From: an uncultured Acidobacteriota bacterium
Lineage (GTDB): Bacteria; Acidobacteriota; Thermoanaerobaculia; UBA5066; Gp7-AA6
Assembly (NCBI GenBank): GCA_963708395.1
Contig: CAVPSG010000002.1
Span: 1,167 to 65,166, forward strand
DNA length: 64,000 nucleotides
Direction: 5' to 3'
Position 1 is the stretch's first letter. Each line of letters starts with the position of its first letter. The translations under genes were made by a program, and so were the position numbers. Below are positions 11,490 through 20,015 of this stretch, in pieces. The notes below the pieces were generated by a model, which searched no databases, had not been told where the DNA came from, and worked only from the letters and a program-made list of their open reading frames with translations.

Positions 11490-11603
11490 ATGCGGGTCGT
11501 TCGATATGCGGTGGTCGCGCTGGTCGTCGCGGCGGCGTTCACCGGGTGCAAGAAGGGTGGCGGGTACATGAGAACCGCCCCCGTGCCGGCGGTCGCGAAG
11601 TAG
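11490..11603 (+). CDS. 37-aa small putative lipoprotein
   Basis: AGGAGG Shine-Dalgarno, then MRVVRYAVVALVVAAAFTGCKKGGGY… with lipobox FTGC. Its stop overlaps the next start (TAGTG). Confidence 0.7.
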   Translation: MRVVRYAVVALVVAAAFTGCKKGGGYMRTAPVPAVAK

Positions 11604-12146
11604 TGCGATCCTCTGGAATCCGAGCGCTCGCGCTGATTGGCGCGCTGGTCGCGGGCCAGTCCGCGCGAGCGCAGGGATATCCGTTCAGTCAACGAGGGAG
11701 CGTCACGCAGGACGTGGCGTTCACCAAGATCGCGATCGAGTATGGTCGGCCGATCGCGCGCGGCCGCGTGCTATTCGGCCAGCTCGTTCCCTGGGACAGC
11801 ATCTGGCATCCCGGGGCGGACTCGGCCACGCGAATCTCCTTCGCGCACGACGTCGTGCTCGAGGGCCACGCGGTCAAGGCGGGTGAGTACTCGCTGTGGC
11901 TCGTGCCGCGCCAGCGCGGCACGTGGACGTTCATCCTCAGCCGCGCGGCGCACACGTTCCACAAGCCATATCCGGGCGCGTCGGAGGACCTGCTCCGTGT
12001 GGAGGTCACGCCGGAGACGGTGTCGCACATGGAAACCATGGCGATCTATTTTCCCGTCGTGCTTCGTGAGACCGCGGTCGTTACGGATTCACTGGGGCGA
12101 GACCGCCGTGCCAATTCACATCACGGCGCCGTACAAGCCGGACTGA
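11603..12146 (+). CDS. DUF2911 family exported protein; one frameshift near 12080
   Basis: GTG start. Motifs SQRGSVTQ, IEYGRPIARGRVLFGQLVPWDSIWHPGAD and GEYSLW. The C-terminus IHWGETAVPIHI is in a second frame. Confidence 0.85.
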
Positions 12147-12207
12147 TCGCCGCGGGCGCGTGATTTCCCCGACGCTGACGTCGCGTCGACCGACCGAAGA
12201 TGGCCGT

Positions 12208-12678
12208 CTATCTGCGCCGCGTTCGCACCAGCAGCACGTCACCCACGATGACCGAACCCGTCGGCGTGAGGCGAGGGCCGATGGACAGAAGCGCCGTGCT
12301 CCAGGCTCACAGCTTCAATCGTCGAGACACGCATAGACTCGAGGATCGAAAGCTCCATGGGCGCTCCTCCGTCGATGGATACCGACAGCGGCGCTAAGCC
12401 ACGCGGATTGAAGAATTCCGGACGTACGCGACGCAACGCCGCGAGCAGCCATGTCGTCTTGTCCATCGCGCGAAAGGTCCGCCGCGGACACCGTTTGACG
12501 ATTGTATGAGTCGGGACTCGGTCTGGTTCGACGGCCGGACTGCGGTCGTCGTACAGCCCGACGCCGATCCGACGACCACGAACAGGATGGCCGCCCGTCG
12601 CGCATACGTTCGAAGACTCGCATTCGAGGCGCCGCGACGCGATTGGCGCGCTCCCCACACGACGATTTGTCTGGACAT
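12208..12678 (-). CDS. Putative small lipoprotein with a TonB-plug-like domain; two frameshifts
   Basis: Frames join …FVVVGSASGCTTT…, LLAALRRVRPEFF…VSIDGG…LESMRVSTIEAV and GSVIVGDVLLVRTRRR*. The family resemblance is from memory. Confidence 0.5.
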
Positions 12679-12753
12679 CGATCGCTCCGCGACTTGAGTC
12701 GGTTTTGGCGGCTCGGGCCGACGCCGTCGGTTGGGCTGCAACTGGCCCCAGAC

Positions 12754-12788
12754 ACAAGCACACGATCTCGATTCACAACCCGACATTT
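12754..12788 (-). promoter_or_regulatory. Candidate ECF-sigma promoter, copy 2 (AAATGTCGGGTT-N10-ATCGTGTGCTTGT)
   Basis: All 25 conserved positions and the spacing are identical to the copy at 16349-16383. It lies ~75 nt upstream of the lipoprotein start. Confidence 0.65.
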
Positions 12789-12878
12789 CTTCGGCGTCGC
12801 TGGTCCATCATCCGAGCGGCGAATGCGCGGGATTGGACAGGCGCTGATCAACGGGACACCGGAGCAACAGCGTGGTCG

Positions 12879-15800
12879 CTAGAAGCTGTACCGCAGCGAG
12901 AGCTGCAGCTGGTAGCTGGACTCGGCGTTCTGGACGTTGCGCGCCGGGGTGTTGAACGTGTAGAGCGGCTGCGCCACCGGCGTCTGCGTCCGCCCCGCGT
13001 TCTGCAGAATCCACGGGCTGGGGACCTCGAAGAGTCCCCACGACTTGTTGAGCAAGTTGAGAACGTTGAATACCTCGAGCTGGACCGCCGCGGCATGTCC
13101 GCCAACCGCGGGCAGCGACTGCCGCACCGACAGGTTCGAGGTGTGCACCCACGCGCTGCGACAACTGTTGCGCGCGACGATGCGGCCTCGCTGCCGATCG
13201 AGGCACGGCGTGCTGTGAATGAACTTCTCGAAGGCCACGCCCTGCGCTGTCGCCGAGTCTGAACTTCCGGCGAAGGCAATCTCCGACCGATTGGTCGCGT
13301 CGCGCGGCACGTAGATGGGATCGTCGGCGCCGGTACCGTCGGCGTTCAGATCACCCGTGAACTTTCCGGCCGTCGAATCGCCGTATGTGAACGGCACGCC
13401 AGACTCGCCGATGTAGTACAGTGAGATGTCGGTCGTTCGGTGCTTCCATCGCGCCGCGTACGTCGCCGAAAGCACCACCCGATGTGGGATCTCGAACGAG
13501 GACACGCCAGAGGTCGCGTCATCGAGGCGGCCGGAGCCCGGGCGTTCGCCCGCCCAGAGGTCGAGCGGAATTGGAGTCATGTTGCTCGTGATGGATCGCA
13601 CGTCGCGGACACGCGAATACGTGTATGAGAGACCCATCTCGAGACGGTCGGACCATGGCCTGTGCACCTGTCCCGTAACCGACCATGAGTACCCGCCGGT
13701 TTGGTTGCGAAGATCGACGACCTCTGAAAACGGGTTGCCCGCGACGAGCGACGGGCGCGCAACGCCATCAGTGCCAAGCGATCCGTACATCACTCGACCG
13801 TGCGAATCGACACCCGTTGGGCCGCCGAGGCCGAGATTGAAGAAGCCGAAGTCGGATCGCACTCGCGAGTACAAGGCTTCCACGCCGCCAATCAGGTTCC
13901 ATGGCAGGCGCTGGTCGACGCCAACAGACGCGCGCATCGTTTCCGCCATGCGCAAGTTTCGATCGACGAGCGTGACCGCGCCATTCGCCGGGCCGGATCC
14001 ATTCGCGCACGTCGTCGGCTGCACGGCGGGGTACGGGGTGAACGCGGGCACATTTCCAGCGGCGCACGACAGCGTCCGTATGCCGACGCCGTCCGAGCGC
14101 ATCGGCCCAACGAGCCAACCCAGCGGCGGGCGACCAACGAATAGGCCGGCGCCTCCGCGAATGCTCGTGCGGTGGTCGTCGTCCGGCTGCCACATGAACC
14201 CGACCCTCGGCGACCACTGGGGGCGAAAACGCGGAAAGTCGGTGGTGCGGCGATGAAACACTGAATCGACTTGCGGATCGTACGCCGGATGTTGGCTGAA
14301 CGTCAAACCATCGGCCCGCACGCCGAGCGTCACCGACATGCGGTCGCTGAGACGCCACTCGTCGCTCGCGTACAGGCTGGGCTCGGCCCCCGCCACAGGG
14401 GATGCGGCGCTGCCGAAATCTCTACTGATCGTGAAAGCTGACGGGGCCCCGGCGGCGACCGCGTCGAGGCTCGGAAACGTCCATTGTCCATAGGCCGTTT
14501 TGACACCGATCGCAGCGTACCGGAAGAACTCGACGTGGGCGCCGAACCCGAGCGTGTGACTCGGCCCTGGCTGGAATACGACGTAGTCGCCGATCTCGGT
14601 GGAGGCACCGGTCGAGCTGCCGCCGCCCTGGGCGCGCACCTCAGGCCCGGCGAGCAGCGTGGCACCGACGACCGAAGCCGAAATCGAAGGCATTTGCACG
14701 GACGTCCCGCCGCCGATCGGATTGTCGGTGTGGCCCAACTGAAATTCGTTGAACACGGCGGGCGACAGTTGAGAAAACAGCTGAACCGCCGTCGTTCGCT
14801 TCGTCAGGCGAATCACGCCGGCGACGCTGGTGAGCTGAAAATTGCGGTTCGTGACGGGTCGTTGGAAGTTGGAAAACTGGCCGTCACTGTAGCTTTCGCG
14901 CAGCACGAGGCGGCTCGCGAGCTCCGGCAGCGCGAAGTCCACCCGTCCGAACAGCGCGATATTCGGATTCGGTAATTTGACGCGACCACCGTCGCCTGGG
15001 TCGAGCCCCCGGTCGTGCAGCAGCGAAGCGAACCGCGCTACTGTATCCGACGACACAGGGACCGGAAATGGCGCATCGCTGGCCTGGCCGACATACGGCC
15101 CACGAGCAGGTTGCGAGGCGCGCTGAATCTCGGGAGCAATGAAAAAGTGGATGCGATCGTGAACGATCGGCCCTCCGAGGGAGAAGCCAAACACCTCGCG
15201 CTCGAATGACGAGGTTCCCAGAAGCGTGCCACTCCTCGCGAGTTGCGCGTTCCGCAAATCCCCATATACGGATCCGTGCAGATCGTTCGTGCCGCGCTTC
15301 GTGACGGCGTTGACGAGCAGGCCGGTGAAGTCGCCATAGCGCGGGTCGAACGGCGACAGATGCACCTGGTACTCCTTCACGGCCTCCAGCGGGATGGTCC
15401 TGTTGCTCGTGCTGGTGAGGGGCGCCGCCCCCGCGCCATTACCGCTGGTCTGAAGAATTCGCTCGCTCACTCCGTCGATGAGATAGCTATTGAAGCGGAA
15501 GGCGGCCCCTCCACCCGACAAGCCGAATCGGGTGGTGACCTGGGGAACCATGCGCATGAAGTCGTAAATGTCCCCGTTGAGCGTCGGGAGCCGGCGCAGC
15601 GTCGAGTCCGAGATCGAAGTCCCAATTCCTCGTCCCGGTGCCCTCTGCGCATCGATATTGTCGGCATCGACGATGACGGTATCGAGGCGCGTGACGGCGA
15701 CAAGGAGGAAGTCGATGTCAGGACGATCGCCGAGGTTGAGGTAGGGAATTGTCCGGGTCTGCGGCACGAAGCCGATCCGCCGTACCTCGACGGTGTAGGG

Positions 15801-16055
15801 TCCGCCGGTTTCGAGTCCTTGAATCGAGTAACTGCCGCGGCGCACCCGCGCGTCGCTCCGATAACCGGTCGCGCGATTCACGATGCGCACCGGCGTCCCG
15901 TCGACGTCGGCGCCGTTCTCGGCGCGGACGGCGCCACGGATTGCCGCCGTCGTGATTCCTTGCGCGGCGACCGGCGCCGAAGACCACCACAGGGCGGTGG
16001 CCAACACGAGCGGGCCGAAAAATCGATGCAGACGACCACGCCGAGGAAGATCCAC
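12879..16055 (-). CDS. TonB-dependent receptor (Oar-like) with N-terminal carboxypeptidase-regulatory-like domain
   Basis: Probable GTG start at 16055 after GGAGG. Signal peptide, then AQGITTAAIRG, EAVKEYQV…FDPRYGDFTGLLVNAVTKRGTN, and C-terminal YQLQLSLRYSF. Confidence 0.92.
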   Translation of the reverse strand: MDLPRRGRLHRFFGPLVLATALWWSSAPVAAQGITTAAIRGAVRAENGADVDGTPVRIVNRATGYRSDARVRRGSYSIQGLETGGPYTVEVRRIGFVPQTRTIPYLNLGDRPDIDFLLVAVTRLDTVIVDADNIDAQRAPGRGIGTSISDSTLRRLPTLNGDIYDFMRMVPQVTTRFGLSGGGAAFRFNSYLIDGVSERILQTSGNGAGAAPLTSTSNRTIPLEAVKEYQVHLSPFDPRYGDFTGLLVNAVTKRGTNDLHGSVYGDLRNAQLARSGTLLGTSSFEREVFGFSLGGPIVHDRIHFFIAPEIQRASQPARGPYVGQASDAPFPVPVSSDTVARFASLLHDRGLDPGDGGRVKLPNPNIALFGRVDFALPELASRLVLRESYSDGQFSNFQRPVTNRNFQLTSVAGVIRLTKRTTAVQLFSQLSPAVFNEFQLGHTDNPIGGGTSVQMPSISASVVGATLLAGPEVRAQGGGSSTGASTEIGDYVVFQPGPSHTLGFGAHVEFFRYAAIGVKTAYGQWTFPSLDAVAAGAPSAFTISRDFGSAASPVAGAEPSLYASDEWRLSDRMSVTLGVRADGLTFSQHPAYDPQVDSVFHRRTTDFPRFRPQWSPRVGFMWQPDDDHRTSIRGGAGLFVGRPPLGWLVGPMRSDGVGIRTLSCAAGNVPAFTPYPAVQPTTCANGSGPANGAVTLVDRNLRMAETMRASVGVDQRLPWNLIGGVEALYSRVRSDFGFFNLGLGGPTGVDSHGRVMYGSLGTDGVARPSLVAGNPFSEVVDLRNQTGGYSWSVTGQVHRPWSDRLEMGLSYTYSRVRDVRSITSNMTPIPLDLWAGERPGSGRLDDATSGVSSFEIPHRVVLSATYAARWKHRTTDISLYYIGESGVPFTYGDSTAGKFTGDLNADGTGADDPIYVPRDATNRSEIAFAGSSDSATAQGVAFEKFIHSTPCLDRQRGRIVARNSCRSAWVHTSNLSVRQSLPAVGGHAAAVQLEVFNVLNLLNKSWGLFEVPSPWILQNAGRTQTPVAQPLYTFNTPARNVQNAESSYQLQLSLRYSF

Positions 16056-16348
16056 CGCGCCTCCAGAACCGCTCGGTGACCACTCGAGCGGCGAAACGAC
16101 GACGGTCAACACTGTCTGCGCAGCGACCACACCGCAAGTTGCTCCAGCCGCCCGTCGACGTCGGCTATCGTCGCGATCCTGCGCCGCGCCGGCGTGCGCG
16201 CCGACGACGAGCCTGGCCGGCATGGCGAACGTGTATGTTCGAAGATACGCATGAGATACTTTGCAAGACATGTCGTCCTCCATAGCCCGGGCTTGGCTCT
16301 TGATTTGCGCCACGCTGACGCGAATCGCCGGGGCGATGCGCCCCACGA

Positions 16349-16383
16349 ACAAGCACACGATTACCGGCGGTAACCCGACATTT
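16349..16383 (-). promoter_or_regulatory. Candidate ECF-sigma promoter, copy 1
   Basis: AAATGTCGGGTT-accgccggta-ATCGTGTGCTTGT, upstream of the TonB receptor and divergent from the ECF gene. Confidence 0.65.
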
Positions 16384-16533
16384 GGCGCCGGCGCCTCGCC
16401 GCGACGTCGCGCTCACGCTTGACTCGGCGCATCCCATCGCGGAAGATTGAGGCGCGAGAAGTGCGCGGACTACGCGACGTCGCATGCGCCCTGAGACCAC
16501 CGCGCCCCGCAGTCCGGTGCTGGTTGGAGCGAC

Positions 16534-17094
16534 ATGACCGGTGAGCCCGATAGCATGGGTGCCCTCGAAGCCCTGCGTAGCCCGCGTCATGCCCTGCTGG
16601 ATCGATTGCTGCCAGCGGTCTACGACGAATTGCGAGCGATCGCGCATAAACATCTCGCTCGGCATGGGCACACTGACTCGCTTGCCACCACCGGCCTGGT
16701 TCACGAGGCGTACCTGAAACTCGTCGACCAGTCACAGTCCGACTGGCGGGACCGCGCGCACTTTTTCGCCTTGTCCTCGGTCGCCATGCGACACGTGTTG
16801 GTCAATCGCGCGAGGGACCGCGCGACACTCAAACGGGGAGGCGCGCGTGGGGCAATCACGCTGGACGAGGAAGTGATTGCGGCCGACGACTGTGCAGACA
16901 CGCTGTTGGCGATCGACGACGCGCTCGAACGACTGGCGGCCGTCGAGCCCCGCCTCGCCAAAGTGGTCGAATGCCGATTCTTCGGCGGACTGTCTGAAAA
17001 AGAGATTGCCGAAGCCCTCGGCGTTACCGAACGCACCGTCGAGCGCGACTGGGTCAAAGCGCGGATGTTGCTGCGCCGAGCGTTGGCTGAATGA
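16534..17094 (+). CDS. ECF RNA polymerase sigma factor (TIGR02999-like, kinase-associated)
   Basis: LLPAVYDELRAIA, TGLVHEAYLKL, WRDRAHFFALSSVAMRHVLVNRAR and VECRFFGGLSEKEIAEALGVTERTVERDW. Confidence 0.93.
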   Translation: MTGEPDSMGALEALRSPRHALLDRLLPAVYDELRAIAHKHLARHGHTDSLATTGLVHEAYLKLVDQSQSDWRDRAHFFALSSVAMRHVLVNRARDRATLKRGGARGAITLDEEVIAADDCADTLLAIDDALERLAAVEPRLAKVVECRFFGGLSEKEIAEALGVTERTVERDWVKARMLLRRALAE

Positions 17095-20015
17095 CCGCAC
17101 GCTCACCCGACGACCTCCCGATGAGCCGACCGATCTTGCCCGATCGCTGGCCGGAGATCGCGCCGCTGCTCGACGCGGCGCTCGACCTCGAGCCGTCCGA
17201 GCGGCGGGCGTTCCTGGATCGCGCGTGCGCTGGCGACGCCAAGTTGCGTGATGCGCTCGAGGCGTTGCTCGCCGAATGCGCTCGCCCCGATCGATTGTTC
17301 GCAGCCGGCGCCGTCGAACGCTTTGGGGCGCTGCTCGCCGGGCCGCCGGGTCAGTTGCCCGAGATGCTGGCCGGACGCTATCGCGTCCAGCGTGAAATCG
17401 GTGCCGGGGGAATGGCGACCGTCTACCTGGCTCGCGACGTCAAGCACGATCGCGATGTCGCACTCAAGGTGCTCCGCGCCGACCTCGCCGCCGCCATCGG
17501 CACCGACCGATTTCTCGCGGAGGTCCAGATCGCTGCGAGGCTCGACCACCCGCACATTCTGACTCTCATCGACTCGGGAAGCGCGGACGGCGCGCTGTTC
17601 TATGTCATGCCGTACGTGCGCGGCGAGAGTCTCCGCGCAAGGCTGGCGCGAGAGCGCCAGCTCCCGCTTGACGACGCGCTCTCGATTGCACGACAGATCG
17701 CCAGCGCCCTCGACTACGCGCACTCACAAGGTGTTGTGCATCGAGACATCAAGCCCGAGAACATTCTGCTGCACGAGGGTGAGGCGGTGCTCGCCGATTT
17801 CGGGATCGCGCTCGCGATGGCGGAGGCCGGCGTTACGCGGCTCACCCAGACGGGCCTCTCGCTTGGCACACCGCAGTACATGAGTCCGGAGCAGGCGACC
17901 GGCGAGCGTACCATTGATGCGCGGAGCGACATCTATTCGCTGGGCGCGGTGCTGTACGAAATGCTTGCCGGCGTTCCGCCCGTCACCGGTGCGACGAAAC
18001 AGGCAATCATCGCGAAGCTACTCGCCGAGCGGCCGACGAGCCTCCGCGTCATCCGCGACACCGTGCCTGAAGGTGTGGACTCCGGTGTGCTCAAGGCGCT
18101 ATCGAAAGTGCGGGCGGACCGGTTCGAGACCGCGGGGGCGTTCATCCGTGCGCTCGACACACCGGCGGCGACGAACGCCTCGACTCCACCGCCACCGCGG
18201 GTCAATAAGAGAATTCTTGTTGCGCTTGGTGTTGCCGGTGCCGTCGCGGTCGTCGCGGTCGTCGCCATTGGGGCGCGGTTCGCGCACGGAAAAATCGCGC
18301 GACGGGGGCGCGCAGTCACCGCGCTGACCGATCACCGCGTGATCACGTTGACGGGTGACGCGGCGATTCCCGCGATCTCGGGCGATGGGAAGATTCTCGC
18401 GTATAGAACGGCGACCTGTGGCCCGAGCGGCTGCCGATACGGCATCGACCTGAAAGTTGTGGCGGGCGGTCGACCGCGTCGGTTGCTCGACGGCGCCAAC
18501 GCCATCTATACCATTGATTGGAGTCCCGATCGTCGCAATCTGCTTGTTCATGGGAATATGGGGGCCGCCCTCGGTACTTACATTGTCTCGGCGTCGTTCG
18601 GAGGCACACCGCCGAGGCGTGTGAAGCAGCAAGTCGATCGCATCGACCGCCAGGTACAAGCAACGTTCTTCGCCGATGGCGATTCTCTGCTCTTGGTGAG
18701 GCAGGGCAGGCTCGACGACGACCCCCGTTTGCTATTGGTCGCTGATCTGAACGGTGTCGTTCATGACAGCATCCAGGTCGGCGGCCGCGGAGACCAACTT
18801 GCGTTCGCACTGCAGGTCCCGGGTTCGAAGTGGCTGGTGATCGGGTTGCATCGCAAGGTTTCAACGTCGGCCGCGCCGTTGGAGGCAGTCGTCATCCAAC
18901 GAGATGGTCAGGTCGTGAGTCGATCCGTCATCGGCAATCAGGGCAGCAGAGACACCGAGGCCCACGCGTCCTCCGACGCCTTGTGGATCTCCCCCGGAGG
19001 AGAGGGTTGGCCGAAGCGCGCCGTGCTCCGGATTCCGATCGACTCGGTCTCGGGCCGGTTCGCAAAGACCATCGACACGATCAACACCGCCGTCCACACG
19101 AGATTCGGCGTGACGACAGATGGATCCTCGCTGGTGCTCGATGAGGGGAGCACCGACTACTCGCTGTTTGCGCTCGACATGGCCCACGCCCTTCGCGGCG
19201 AATTTCCGCAGAAGCCGTTGCTGAAGTCCAGTTCTGCGCTCAATGTCCGCATGTCGCCCGACGGCAAGCAGATACTCGTCGGCCGTGACGGCGGACGACC
19301 CATGGATCCACACCCGGATTGGTCCACGATTCCGTTCGACGGCCTGCCCGATACCTTGACGCCGCTCGCGCTCGGAGAGCGCACAACGGAAGCGTTTTGG
19401 TCCGACGACGCAACCGTCGCTATCCGCGCGCTCAGGGATTCTGGCGCGCATCTCGCGCTGGTGGATGTCGGCTCTGGAGGTGTGCGCGAGCTACTGAACT
19501 CGGACCAATATCCGCGCAACTTTGCGCGTCTACCAAAAGGCGGATGGATTTGGGTGAGAGGCTACAGGCCCGAACTGAGCCTTCAGCGCCTCGGAGAGCT
19601 GGCGCCACGACGAATCCCCGTCCCGACGTGGTACGCCTCGGTGTACTCCGCAGCCGTGTCGCAGGACGGACGATTCGTCGCATTCGCCGGCTACAACGCA
19701 CCCGGACAGGACTCCGTTGGCGTGAGCGTGATGTCGCTGTCCGACCTGTCGGTACAGCACTGGTTCACGATCGCTGGCGACGGCGGCGAGGTTGGCTGGC
19801 TGAGCGACGGAACGTTGTTGCTACGCCTCGCCGACACGCCGGAGAGGTATTCGCTGTATCACCTGACGCGAGCTGACCGAGCGGAGAAGCTGGGCACCAT
19901 TCCGGGAACGGTGTCGTCCATTTCCGTTTCCGCGGACCTCGAGCACGCCGCGATTGTCGTCAATGACTATCGCGGCGACGCCTCGATGAGCCGCGTCGTA
20001 CGACCGAAGAACTAG
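17091..20015 (+). CDS. Membrane Ser/Thr protein kinase with C-terminal TolB-like beta-propeller
   Basis: IGAGGMATVY, VALKVL, HRDIKPENILL, DFGIA, GTPQYMSPEQ and DIYSLG, then a TM helix and WSPD/SPDG repeats. The start overlaps the ECF stop (ATGA). Confidence 0.95.
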   Translation: MTARSPDDLPMSRPILPDRWPEIAPLLDAALDLEPSERRAFLDRACAGDAKLRDALEALLAECARPDRLFAAGAVERFGALLAGPPGQLPEMLAGRYRVQREIGAGGMATVYLARDVKHDRDVALKVLRADLAAAIGTDRFLAEVQIAARLDHPHILTLIDSGSADGALFYVMPYVRGESLRARLARERQLPLDDALSIARQIASALDYAHSQGVVHRDIKPENILLHEGEAVLADFGIALAMAEAGVTRLTQTGLSLGTPQYMSPEQATGERTIDARSDIYSLGAVLYEMLAGVPPVTGATKQAIIAKLLAERPTSLRVIRDTVPEGVDSGVLKALSKVRADRFETAGAFIRALDTPAATNASTPPPPRVNKRILVALGVAGAVAVVAVVAIGARFAHGKIARRGRAVTALTDHRVITLTGDAAIPAISGDGKILAYRTATCGPSGCRYGIDLKVVAGGRPRRLLDGANAIYTIDWSPDRRNLLVHGNMGAALGTYIVSASFGGTPPRRVKQQVDRIDRQVQATFFADGDSLLLVRQGRLDDDPRLLLVADLNGVVHDSIQVGGRGDQLAFALQVPGSKWLVIGLHRKVSTSAAPLEAVVIQRDGQVVSRSVIGNQGSRDTEAHASSDALWISPGGEGWPKRAVLRIPIDSVSGRFAKTIDTINTAVHTRFGVTTDGSSLVLDEGSTDYSLFALDMAHALRGEFPQKPLLKSSSALNVRMSPDGKQILVGRDGGRPMDPHPDWSTIPFDGLPDTLTPLALGERTTEAFWSDDATVAIRALRDSGAHLALVDVGSGGVRELLNSDQYPRNFARLPKGGWIWVRGYRPELSLQRLGELAPRRIPVPTWYASVYSAAVSQDGRFVAFAGYNAPGQDSVGVSVMSLSDLSVQHWFTIAGDGGEVGWLSDGTLLLRLADTPERYSLYHLTRADRAEKLGTIPGTVSSISVSADLEHAAIVVNDYRGDASMSRVVRPKN

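Follow-up and report, generated by a model that had tools for sequence, protein, structure and literature searches.

Two copies of a bipartite element in a 64,000-nucleotide (nt) stretch of contig CAVPSG010000002.1 (the window; assembly GCA_963708395.1, classified as Acidobacteriota) are probably promoters of the extracytoplasmic function (ECF) sigma factor of the TIGR02999/ECF43 type that is encoded beside them and linked to a Ser/Thr kinase. From comparison of sequences we give this reading a probability of about 0.8. The element, AAATGTCGGGTT-N10-ATCGTGTGCTTGT, is 35 nt long and lies on the minus strand at 16383..16349 (P1) and 12788..12754 (P2). In the candidate ECF-type promoter P1 (16349..16383, −), the putative −35 element TGTCGGGT is at 16380..16373 and the putative −10 element TCGTG at 16360..16356; in the second copy, P2 (12754..12788, −), they are at 12785..12778 and 12765..12761. 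Both copies are in non-coding DNA, upstream of genes on the same strand. P1 is 294 nt before the GTG (16055) of a TonB-dependent receptor gene and 151 nt from the divergent sigma start, and P2 is 91 nt past the receptor stop and ~76 nt ahead of the ATG (12678) of a small lipoprotein gene. P1 and P2 agree at each of the 25 specified bases; their 10-nt spacers, ACCGCCGGTA and GTGAATCGAG, show no relation to each other. The original prediction, made from the letters of the window, had listed these two copies, their 25 shared bases with unrelated spacers, and their positions before a TonB receptor gene divergent from the ECF gene and before a lipoprotein gene; direct comparison of P1 and P2 and the gene map bore it out on each of these counts.

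When the window was scanned with up to three mismatches allowed, P1 and P2 were the sole matches, and none of 100 dinucleotide-preserving shuffles of the window contained any match to the motif. In the whole 4.5-Mb assembly, exact copies of each half-motif occur only at P1 and P2. This assembly-wide uniqueness mostly describes another organism, because the end of the contig with the locus is Gemmatimonadaceae-like and the bulk of the assembly is Acidobacteriota. The motif consists of two different blocks at a fixed distance, separated by a free spacer, with neither dyad nor direct-repeat symmetry, an asymmetric two-block layout that suits recognition by a sigma factor, not by a dimeric regulator. 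A scan for promoters and terminators gave no sigma-70-like promoter and no intrinsic terminator near P1 or P2. The hexamer TGGGGC is common to both copies, 3 nt downstream of the motif; in a local alignment of the P1 and P2 regions, the only other shared part was a short TCTTCGAAC box further downstream. Transcription is predicted to start at ~16345-16343 from P1, at the T/G of the shared TGGGGC, and at ~12750-12748 from P2, again on this hexamer. The starts were placed there because those of RpoE10 in Sinorhizobium meliloti have been mapped 9 nt after CGTC (PMC6180224).

The sigma factor gene (16534..17094, +) encodes 186 amino acids (aa), with a PF07638 Sigma70_ECF match of 4.3e-44. As had been proposed, the protein is of the TIGR02999 type, scoring 188.6 bits against the TIGR02999 (Sig-70_X6) model, which has a cut-off of 126.15. 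Its region 2.2, LATTGLVHEAYLKL, is non-acidic, has no DAED motif and contains a Thr-Thr pair (T52/T53) that is kept in nearly all of 90 aligned homologues. The start of the next gene (17091..20015, +) overlaps the sigma stop (ATGA) and encodes a Hanks-type Ser/Thr kinase of 974 aa (Pkinase, 2.7e-49) with one transmembrane segment. Matches of its C-terminal part to PD40 and WD40 repeats were weak and below the cut-offs, a weak indication that this part, taken as periplasmic, may be beta-propeller-like. A sigma gene is paired with a kinase gene in about 70 of 80 related loci, and the open reading frames (ORFs) of the window include no anti-sigma-like ORF between or beside the pair. ECF43 sigmas have Hanks kinase partners and no acidic DAED in region 2.2, and are activated by phosphorylation of a conserved Thr, which lies within STTA in EcfP and is T51 in EcfK (PMC13147305, PMC8999054, PMC8103513).

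The motif recurs with a fixed geometry beside related sigma genes; this conservation, like the motif itself, its positions and the families of sigma and kinase, was observed directly. Of 89 distinct related loci, 14 had TGTCGG-N16-18-CGT on the strand divergent from the sigma gene and no more than 200 nt from its start, against ~0.83 expected from the remainder of the same loci, an enrichment of ~17-fold; on the sigma strand the count was 0. The positive loci include some in which the sigma genes are 58-65% identical and the kinase matches only over the kinase domain, as well as two Ignavibacteriales loci (sigma 48%). In three loci with closer sigma factors (L139, L140 and L142, 79-82%), the sequence TGTCGGGT-N11-TT(T/G)CCGTG lies ~55 nt or less from the sigma start. 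When aligned, the family sites read (A/G)ATGTCGGGT-N14-TCGT(G/T), that is, TGTCGG-N17-CGT, with the 14-nt gap in 13 of 17 high-scoring sites. The genes behind them mostly encode lipoproteins or exported proteins; in some loci, as in the window, two genes in a row are each preceded by a site.

The expectation that homologous ECF genes would have the motif nearby thus held, with divergent sites in L056, L057, L137, L139, L140 and L142 in addition to the overall enrichment. The proposal that TGTCGG and CGTG are the signature of this sigma's regulon is supported, with an adjustment of the distance: the motif does occur beside homologous sigma genes, and the family distance is N17, that in the window N15. 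P1 and P2 are likewise supported as members of a regulon, but one that apparently has just two local sites. A signature in region 4 of the sigma factor, VKARM(L/F)L, accompanies the motif; this association is confounded by phylogeny and was not used as evidence. Region 4 is identical among close orthologues.

With a weight matrix built from 18 sites of other genomes, P1 and P2 came joint first in the 4.5-Mb assembly at 26.6 bits each, and the next two matches fell inside long coding ORFs with high GC3 (GC content at third codon positions). A search of 15 Gemmatimonadota genomes for exact ATGTCGGGT-N15-CGTG returned 10 matches, and the reversed control 0. The 6.2-Mb genome of L056 has P1 and P2 as its only exact sites; that of L057 has a third exact copy, before a paralogous lipoprotein gene. 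In 105 Acidobacteriota genomes there were 2 matches to the motif, about the chance level by a base-composition estimate, with 1 for the reversed control, and the assembly's GTDB family, scanned with the pattern, gave coding or chance-level matches only. These scans can be read as a negative control, since most of the assembly is Acidobacteriota. The motif is absent from the assembly's two other TIGR02999 sigma loci. Matches to the exact pattern in collections of genomes and metagenome contigs, for example in rhizobial FlhA-like genes, were set aside as chance coding matches.

Orthologous loci (sigma 79-90%) keep the sites despite rearranged flanks, both in two loci on the Gemmatimonadaceae side with genomes (L056 and L057) and on three metagenome contigs (L136, L137 and L141). 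L056 (sigma 88%) and L057 (sigma 79%), in which full-length kinase orthologues are ~78% identical to that of the window, have both P1 and P2 on the divergent strand, ~280-320 nt apart and with no receptor gene between them. In L056, P1 is followed by an ORF of 30 aa (MSCKVSHAHLRTYKLVMVAAPVVVARATRA) and P2 by an intact lipoprotein gene of 157 aa (L056:4994-5467, −). The 30-aa ORF resembles the N-terminus of the lipoprotein (…ASLRTYARRAAILFVVVGSASGC), and in the window the leaders are 74 nt behind P1 and 72 nt behind P2; because of this likeness and the similar leaders, P1 with its ORF looks like a decayed tandem duplicate of P2 with the 5′ end of its gene. In the window, the corresponding small ORF (MSCKVSHAYLRTYTFAMPARLVVGAHAG..., 16182..16271, −) runs in frame into the receptor ORF; its sequence suggests that it is what remains of a copy of the lipoprotein gene's 5′ end. 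In L057 and L137, part or all of this ORF has been deleted.

P1 itself has been lost or has degenerated in several relatives. It is cleanly deleted in L136 and L141 (of the group with sigma 88-90%), 75 nt having been lost between GCGC(C)AAAT repeats, and in L137 it is degenerate (AAAGTCGGGT…CGCATG) and 69 nt from P2. P2 and the lipoprotein gene persist in all three, and the P2 spacer, (C/T)GTGAATCGAG, is nearly unchanged in these and in L056 and L057. Within the closest group, the window alone has a perfect P1 and alone has a gene behind it; in these relatives, the state of P1 goes with whether a gene follows it. An extra copy of P2 with a lipoprotein paralogue (67% identity) is found elsewhere in the genome of L057 (L249, contig C4:427321), with no sigma gene within 3 kb of the site, and promoter and lipoprotein gene seem to duplicate as one unit. 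In the clade with 77% sigma identity (L143 and L145), the divergent-strand site is weak. A copy of the motif in this clade, GATGTCGGGT-N10-ATCACGTG, comes immediately behind the kinase stop, ahead of a gene of 93 aa (L143:8427-8460, +; also L145).

The TCTTCGAAC box that P1 and P2 share is part of a longer shared sequence, ATGCG(T/A)(A/G)TCTTCGAAC(A/G)TA, at 16237-16253 and 12608-12623 on the minus strand. It lies in the leader/N-terminal regions and encodes LRTY, its P1-side copy is a near-palindrome (GTATCTTCGAACATAC), and it is kept in L056, L057, L136 and L141. The box could reflect shared ancestry only, or could be an extra regulatory site.

In origin, the locus appears to differ from the remainder of the assembly. 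Close homologues of the sigma factor, kinase, receptor and lipoprotein are found in Gemmatimonadaceae metagenome-assembled genomes (MAGs) and soil metagenome contigs, and the rpoB region of the assembly matches Acidobacteriota/Thermoanaerobaculia MAGs. In species representatives related to the assembly, sigma homologues are at most 53% identical and the motif does not occur beyond chance. The first 36 kb of the contig (approximately window positions 1-34.8 kb) are an outlier in tetranucleotide composition (97.6-98th percentile), with a GC content of 65.4% compared to 68-69% in the next two chunks; from 36 kb on, composition is typical. This points to either a mis-join or a large foreign island at window positions 1-37000.

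Several observations count against P1 and P2 being promoters of the adjacent sigma. Of the 89 related loci, 75 lack a site in the 200 nt next to the sigma start, and the enrichment comes largely from one clade, the loci not being phylogenetically independent. Owing to a C-to-T change, CGT stands at N15 after TGTCGG in the window's P1 and P2 and likewise in the P2 sites of L136, L137 and L141; at the family-typical 17 nt, the window sites read TGT. ECF promoter spacers are reported to be 14-17 nt long (PMC5758882). With the family gap of 14, the matrix score of P1 and P2 is 18.8 bits, compared to 26.6 at a gap of 12. The strength of P1 and P2 is uncertain because of this N15 position and the drop in score. 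The constancy of P2 is also not specific to the motif, since conservation across the whole of P2 and its leader is ~85% in the three closest loci. Relative to the intact L136 orthologue, the lipoprotein gene in the window has three 1-base insertions (at ~12507, ~12448 and ~12288), which jointly restore the frame at the end, and is otherwise 91% identical at the DNA level; the frameshifted gene may be a pseudogene, or the insertions may be assembly errors. Finally, given the origin of the locus, any of several paralogous sigmas of the true host might read P1 and P2.

This last point leads to the first of four other explanations, that P1 and P2 are genuine ECF-type promoters read by another, paralogous ECF sigma of the true host. 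TIGR02999-type sigma genes are multi-copy in the phyla concerned, TGTCGGGT/TCGTG also occurs beside sigma genes only 58-65% identical, so that cross-recognition is possible, and the sites in L157, L158 and L249 have no sigma gene in the stretch examined. The motif is nevertheless tied to the divergent position beside the sigma gene (14 of 89 loci versus 0.83 expected), and the exact sites in the 6.2-Mb genome of L056 are only the two by the sigma gene, which makes a paralogue an improbable reader. Somewhat less probable still is that the two copies have no present function and are leftovers of a tandem duplication of the lipoprotein 5′ region, alike by recent ancestry or gene conversion. A decayed lipoprotein N-terminus (LRTY..VVG) does lie behind P1, with leaders of 74 versus 72 nt, P1 is deleted or degenerate in L136, L141 and L137, the target of P2 is frameshifted in the window, and P1 and P2 share derived bases in the window's genome. 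Ancestry of this kind fits poorly with two blocks that alone stay identical, spacer and leader having fully diverged, and with the same consensus at fixed spacing in non-homologous contexts of many genomes.

We give slightly less weight again to the motif being the operator of a conventional DNA-binding repressor or activator. Its 25 conserved bases are more than sigma contacts alone would need, and conservation runs past the −10 element (CTTGT, TGGGGC). These extra bases vary across the family, though, the blocks have neither dyad nor direct-repeat symmetry, no regulator gene besides sigma and kinase is conserved in the loci, and the geometry is that of mapped ECF promoters (PMC6180224). The least probable explanation, to which we give hardly any credence, takes the direct repeats as recombination sites, or cassette boundaries, that mobilise the receptor gene. 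Direct copies do flank this gene in the window, L157 and L158, and the gene is missing between P1 and P2 in L056, L057 and L137. Compared with L056, however, the insertion boundaries are ~150 nt downstream of P1 and ~47 nt upstream of P2, off the motif; there is no integrase or transposase gene nearby, and single copies of the motif stand before many unrelated lipoprotein genes.

If P1 and P2 are indeed promoters of the adjacent kinase-linked sigma, the switch could operate as follows. Here we infer the dependence on sigma, the transcription start, the phospho-switch and its signal from the arrangement of the locus and from studied systems. On the model of EcfP/PknT and EcfK/PknS, a signal in the envelope or periplasm would be perceived by the C-terminal part of the membrane kinase, and the kinase would phosphorylate the sigma factor at the Thr-Thr of region 2.2, probably at T53. 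Phosphorylated sigma would then bind core RNA polymerase and recognise the −35 element (A)ATGTCGGGT and the −10 element TCGTG, with transcription starting ~8 nt downstream of the latter. P1 would drive the TonB-dependent receptor and P2 the small lipoprotein with its plug-like domain. As to how this arrangement arose, P1 and its short ORF would be the decayed tandem duplicate of P2 and the lipoprotein 5′ end, and the receptor gene, with ~135 nt of its own leader, would have been inserted behind P1 in the window's lineage and so come under the control of P1.

A broader proposal is that an entire subfamily of ECF sigmas in Gemmatimonadota, activated by phosphorylation, has TGTCGGGT-N14-TCGT(G/T) as its common promoter code, and that the code extends to some Ignavibacteriales. 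Each target would have its own copy (lipoproteins, Big-domain surface proteins, TonB-dependent receptors and a plug-only lipoprotein), and genes would join by landing behind a spare copy. For this proposal as a whole we see slightly better than even odds.

The putative target of P1 is a TonB-dependent receptor of 1058 aa (12879..16055, −), with a CarboxypepD_reg domain and an OMP_b-brl_4 barrel. Its long ORF opens at 16358; translation most likely begins at the GTG at 16055, with a GGAGG Shine-Dalgarno sequence in front of it and a signal peptide behind it. Receptor orthologues are 79-92% identical: 86% in L157, 79% in L158 and 92% in L159, where the gene is partial. L157 and L158 each have two copies of TGTCGGGT-N14-(T)CGTG on the receptor strand, one ahead of the receptor gene and one between it and the next gene, 16-23 nt past the receptor stop. 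A 61% identical homologue adjoins a Big_2 gene between genes for a TIGR02999-type sigma and a kinase, an observation of gene order only. From the flanking motifs in L157 and L158 and the context of this homologue, it follows that the receptor family belongs to the same kind of regulon elsewhere, and the receptor in the window appears to have swapped its own promoter for P1. The genomes of L056 and L057 have no close receptor orthologue, the best matches being 40-43% identical. In L159 (1932-5504, −), the partial orthologue is followed by a convergent gene for a 1190-aa BTAD-Pkinase-Tricorn_N protein, a kinase context unlike that of the window.

Directly upstream of the GTG, the receptor has a conserved leader (16056..16148, −) that is part of the inserted receptor segment. 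About 95-110 nt of leader before the GTG are common to the three orthologues (also L157:2934-3026 and L158:1490-1582). This leader may fold into hairpins, with the Shine-Dalgarno sequence and the start region paired in one of them; in the three sequences compared, there was no convincing covariation in these hairpins. An RNA element in the leaders behind P1 and P2 was considered and is unlikely, as a scan of 11500-17500 against Rfam gave no matches at E<=1 and these leaders fold no better than shuffles (z = −0.36 and −0.09).

The putative target of P2 is a small lipoprotein gene (12208..12678, −), with a signal peptide ending in …LFVVVGSASGC and the lipobox VVGSASGC. Comparison of the lipoprotein with Pfam and PDB sequences gave nothing meaningful, the WD40 matches being spurious. 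In residues 60-157 of an AlphaFold model of the L056 lipoprotein, means of the predicted local distance difference test (pLDDT) over blocks of 10 residues were mostly 63-86, with a dip to 40 near residues 131-140. When these residues were used in a Foldseek search, all 50 matches listed were TonB-dependent transporters (RagA, Cir, BtuB and SusC among them), with E values of 8e-3 to 0.3. The model suggests that the C-terminal part of the lipoprotein may be a stand-alone plug-like domain.

Such a promoter code would link a sensor kinase to its outputs, here an outer-membrane receptor and a plug-like lipoprotein, and would give a simple reporter design for finding the signal of the kinase. If the shared code is true, the outputs of kinase-to-sigma pathways in uncultured soil phyla would be predictable from sequence. 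The locus would also be a small, clear example of the growth of a regulon, in which a gene was inserted behind an idle duplicated promoter. To our knowledge, kinase-activated ECF sigmas are widespread and only two pairs have been studied. The switch would be of an ordinary kind, with a promoter code common to related soil bacteria.

Among known systems, the FecI type likewise combines an ECF sigma with a very small local regulon to which an outer-membrane TonB-dependent receptor belongs. FecI is released via FecR and the N-terminal signalling domain of the receptor, whereas the window has no FecR and no STN domain; its input would come from a Ser/Thr kinase, and its sigma factor is of another group, with TIGR02999 as best NCBIfam match. 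The promoter consensus of ECF41 sigmas is reportedly TGTCACA-N16-CGTC (Wecke et al. 2012). ECF41 systems resemble the present one in that the −35 element is of the TGTC type, the −10 element of the CGT type and the regulon small and close to the sigma gene, an example being the SMb20029 promoter (PMC6180224). They differ in the second half of the −35 element and in regulation by a C-terminal extension instead of a kinase. In the ECF42 group, experimentally mapped promoters of RpoE10 in S. meliloti read TGTCGG-N17-CGTC (PMC6180224, Table 1), and the −35 TGTCGG, the CGT-type −10 and the 17-nt distance are those of the family consensus found here. RpoE10 is a larger sigma with a C-terminal TPR extension and no kinase, its −10 is CGTC instead of CGTG/T, and the distance in the window is N15. 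For the ECF43 group itself, no promoter consensus was found in the literature examined.

The closest parallels are EcfP-PknT of Vibrio parahaemolyticus and EcfK-PknS of Xanthomonas citri. Both have the same two-domain sigma of the TIGR02999 type, with a non-acidic region 2.2 containing Thr-Thr, and both share with the window an adjacent gene for a membrane Ser/Thr kinase, the lack of an anti-sigma gene and envelope-related targets nearby (PMC13147305, PMC8999054, PMC8103513). The locus in the window differs from them in being Gemmatimonadota-like and in the C-terminal sensor part of its kinase, and phosphorylation is proposed here by analogy only. The targets also differ: in the EcfP and EcfK systems they are polymyxin-resistance or type VI secretion system genes, and in the window they would be an outer-membrane receptor and a plug-like lipoprotein.

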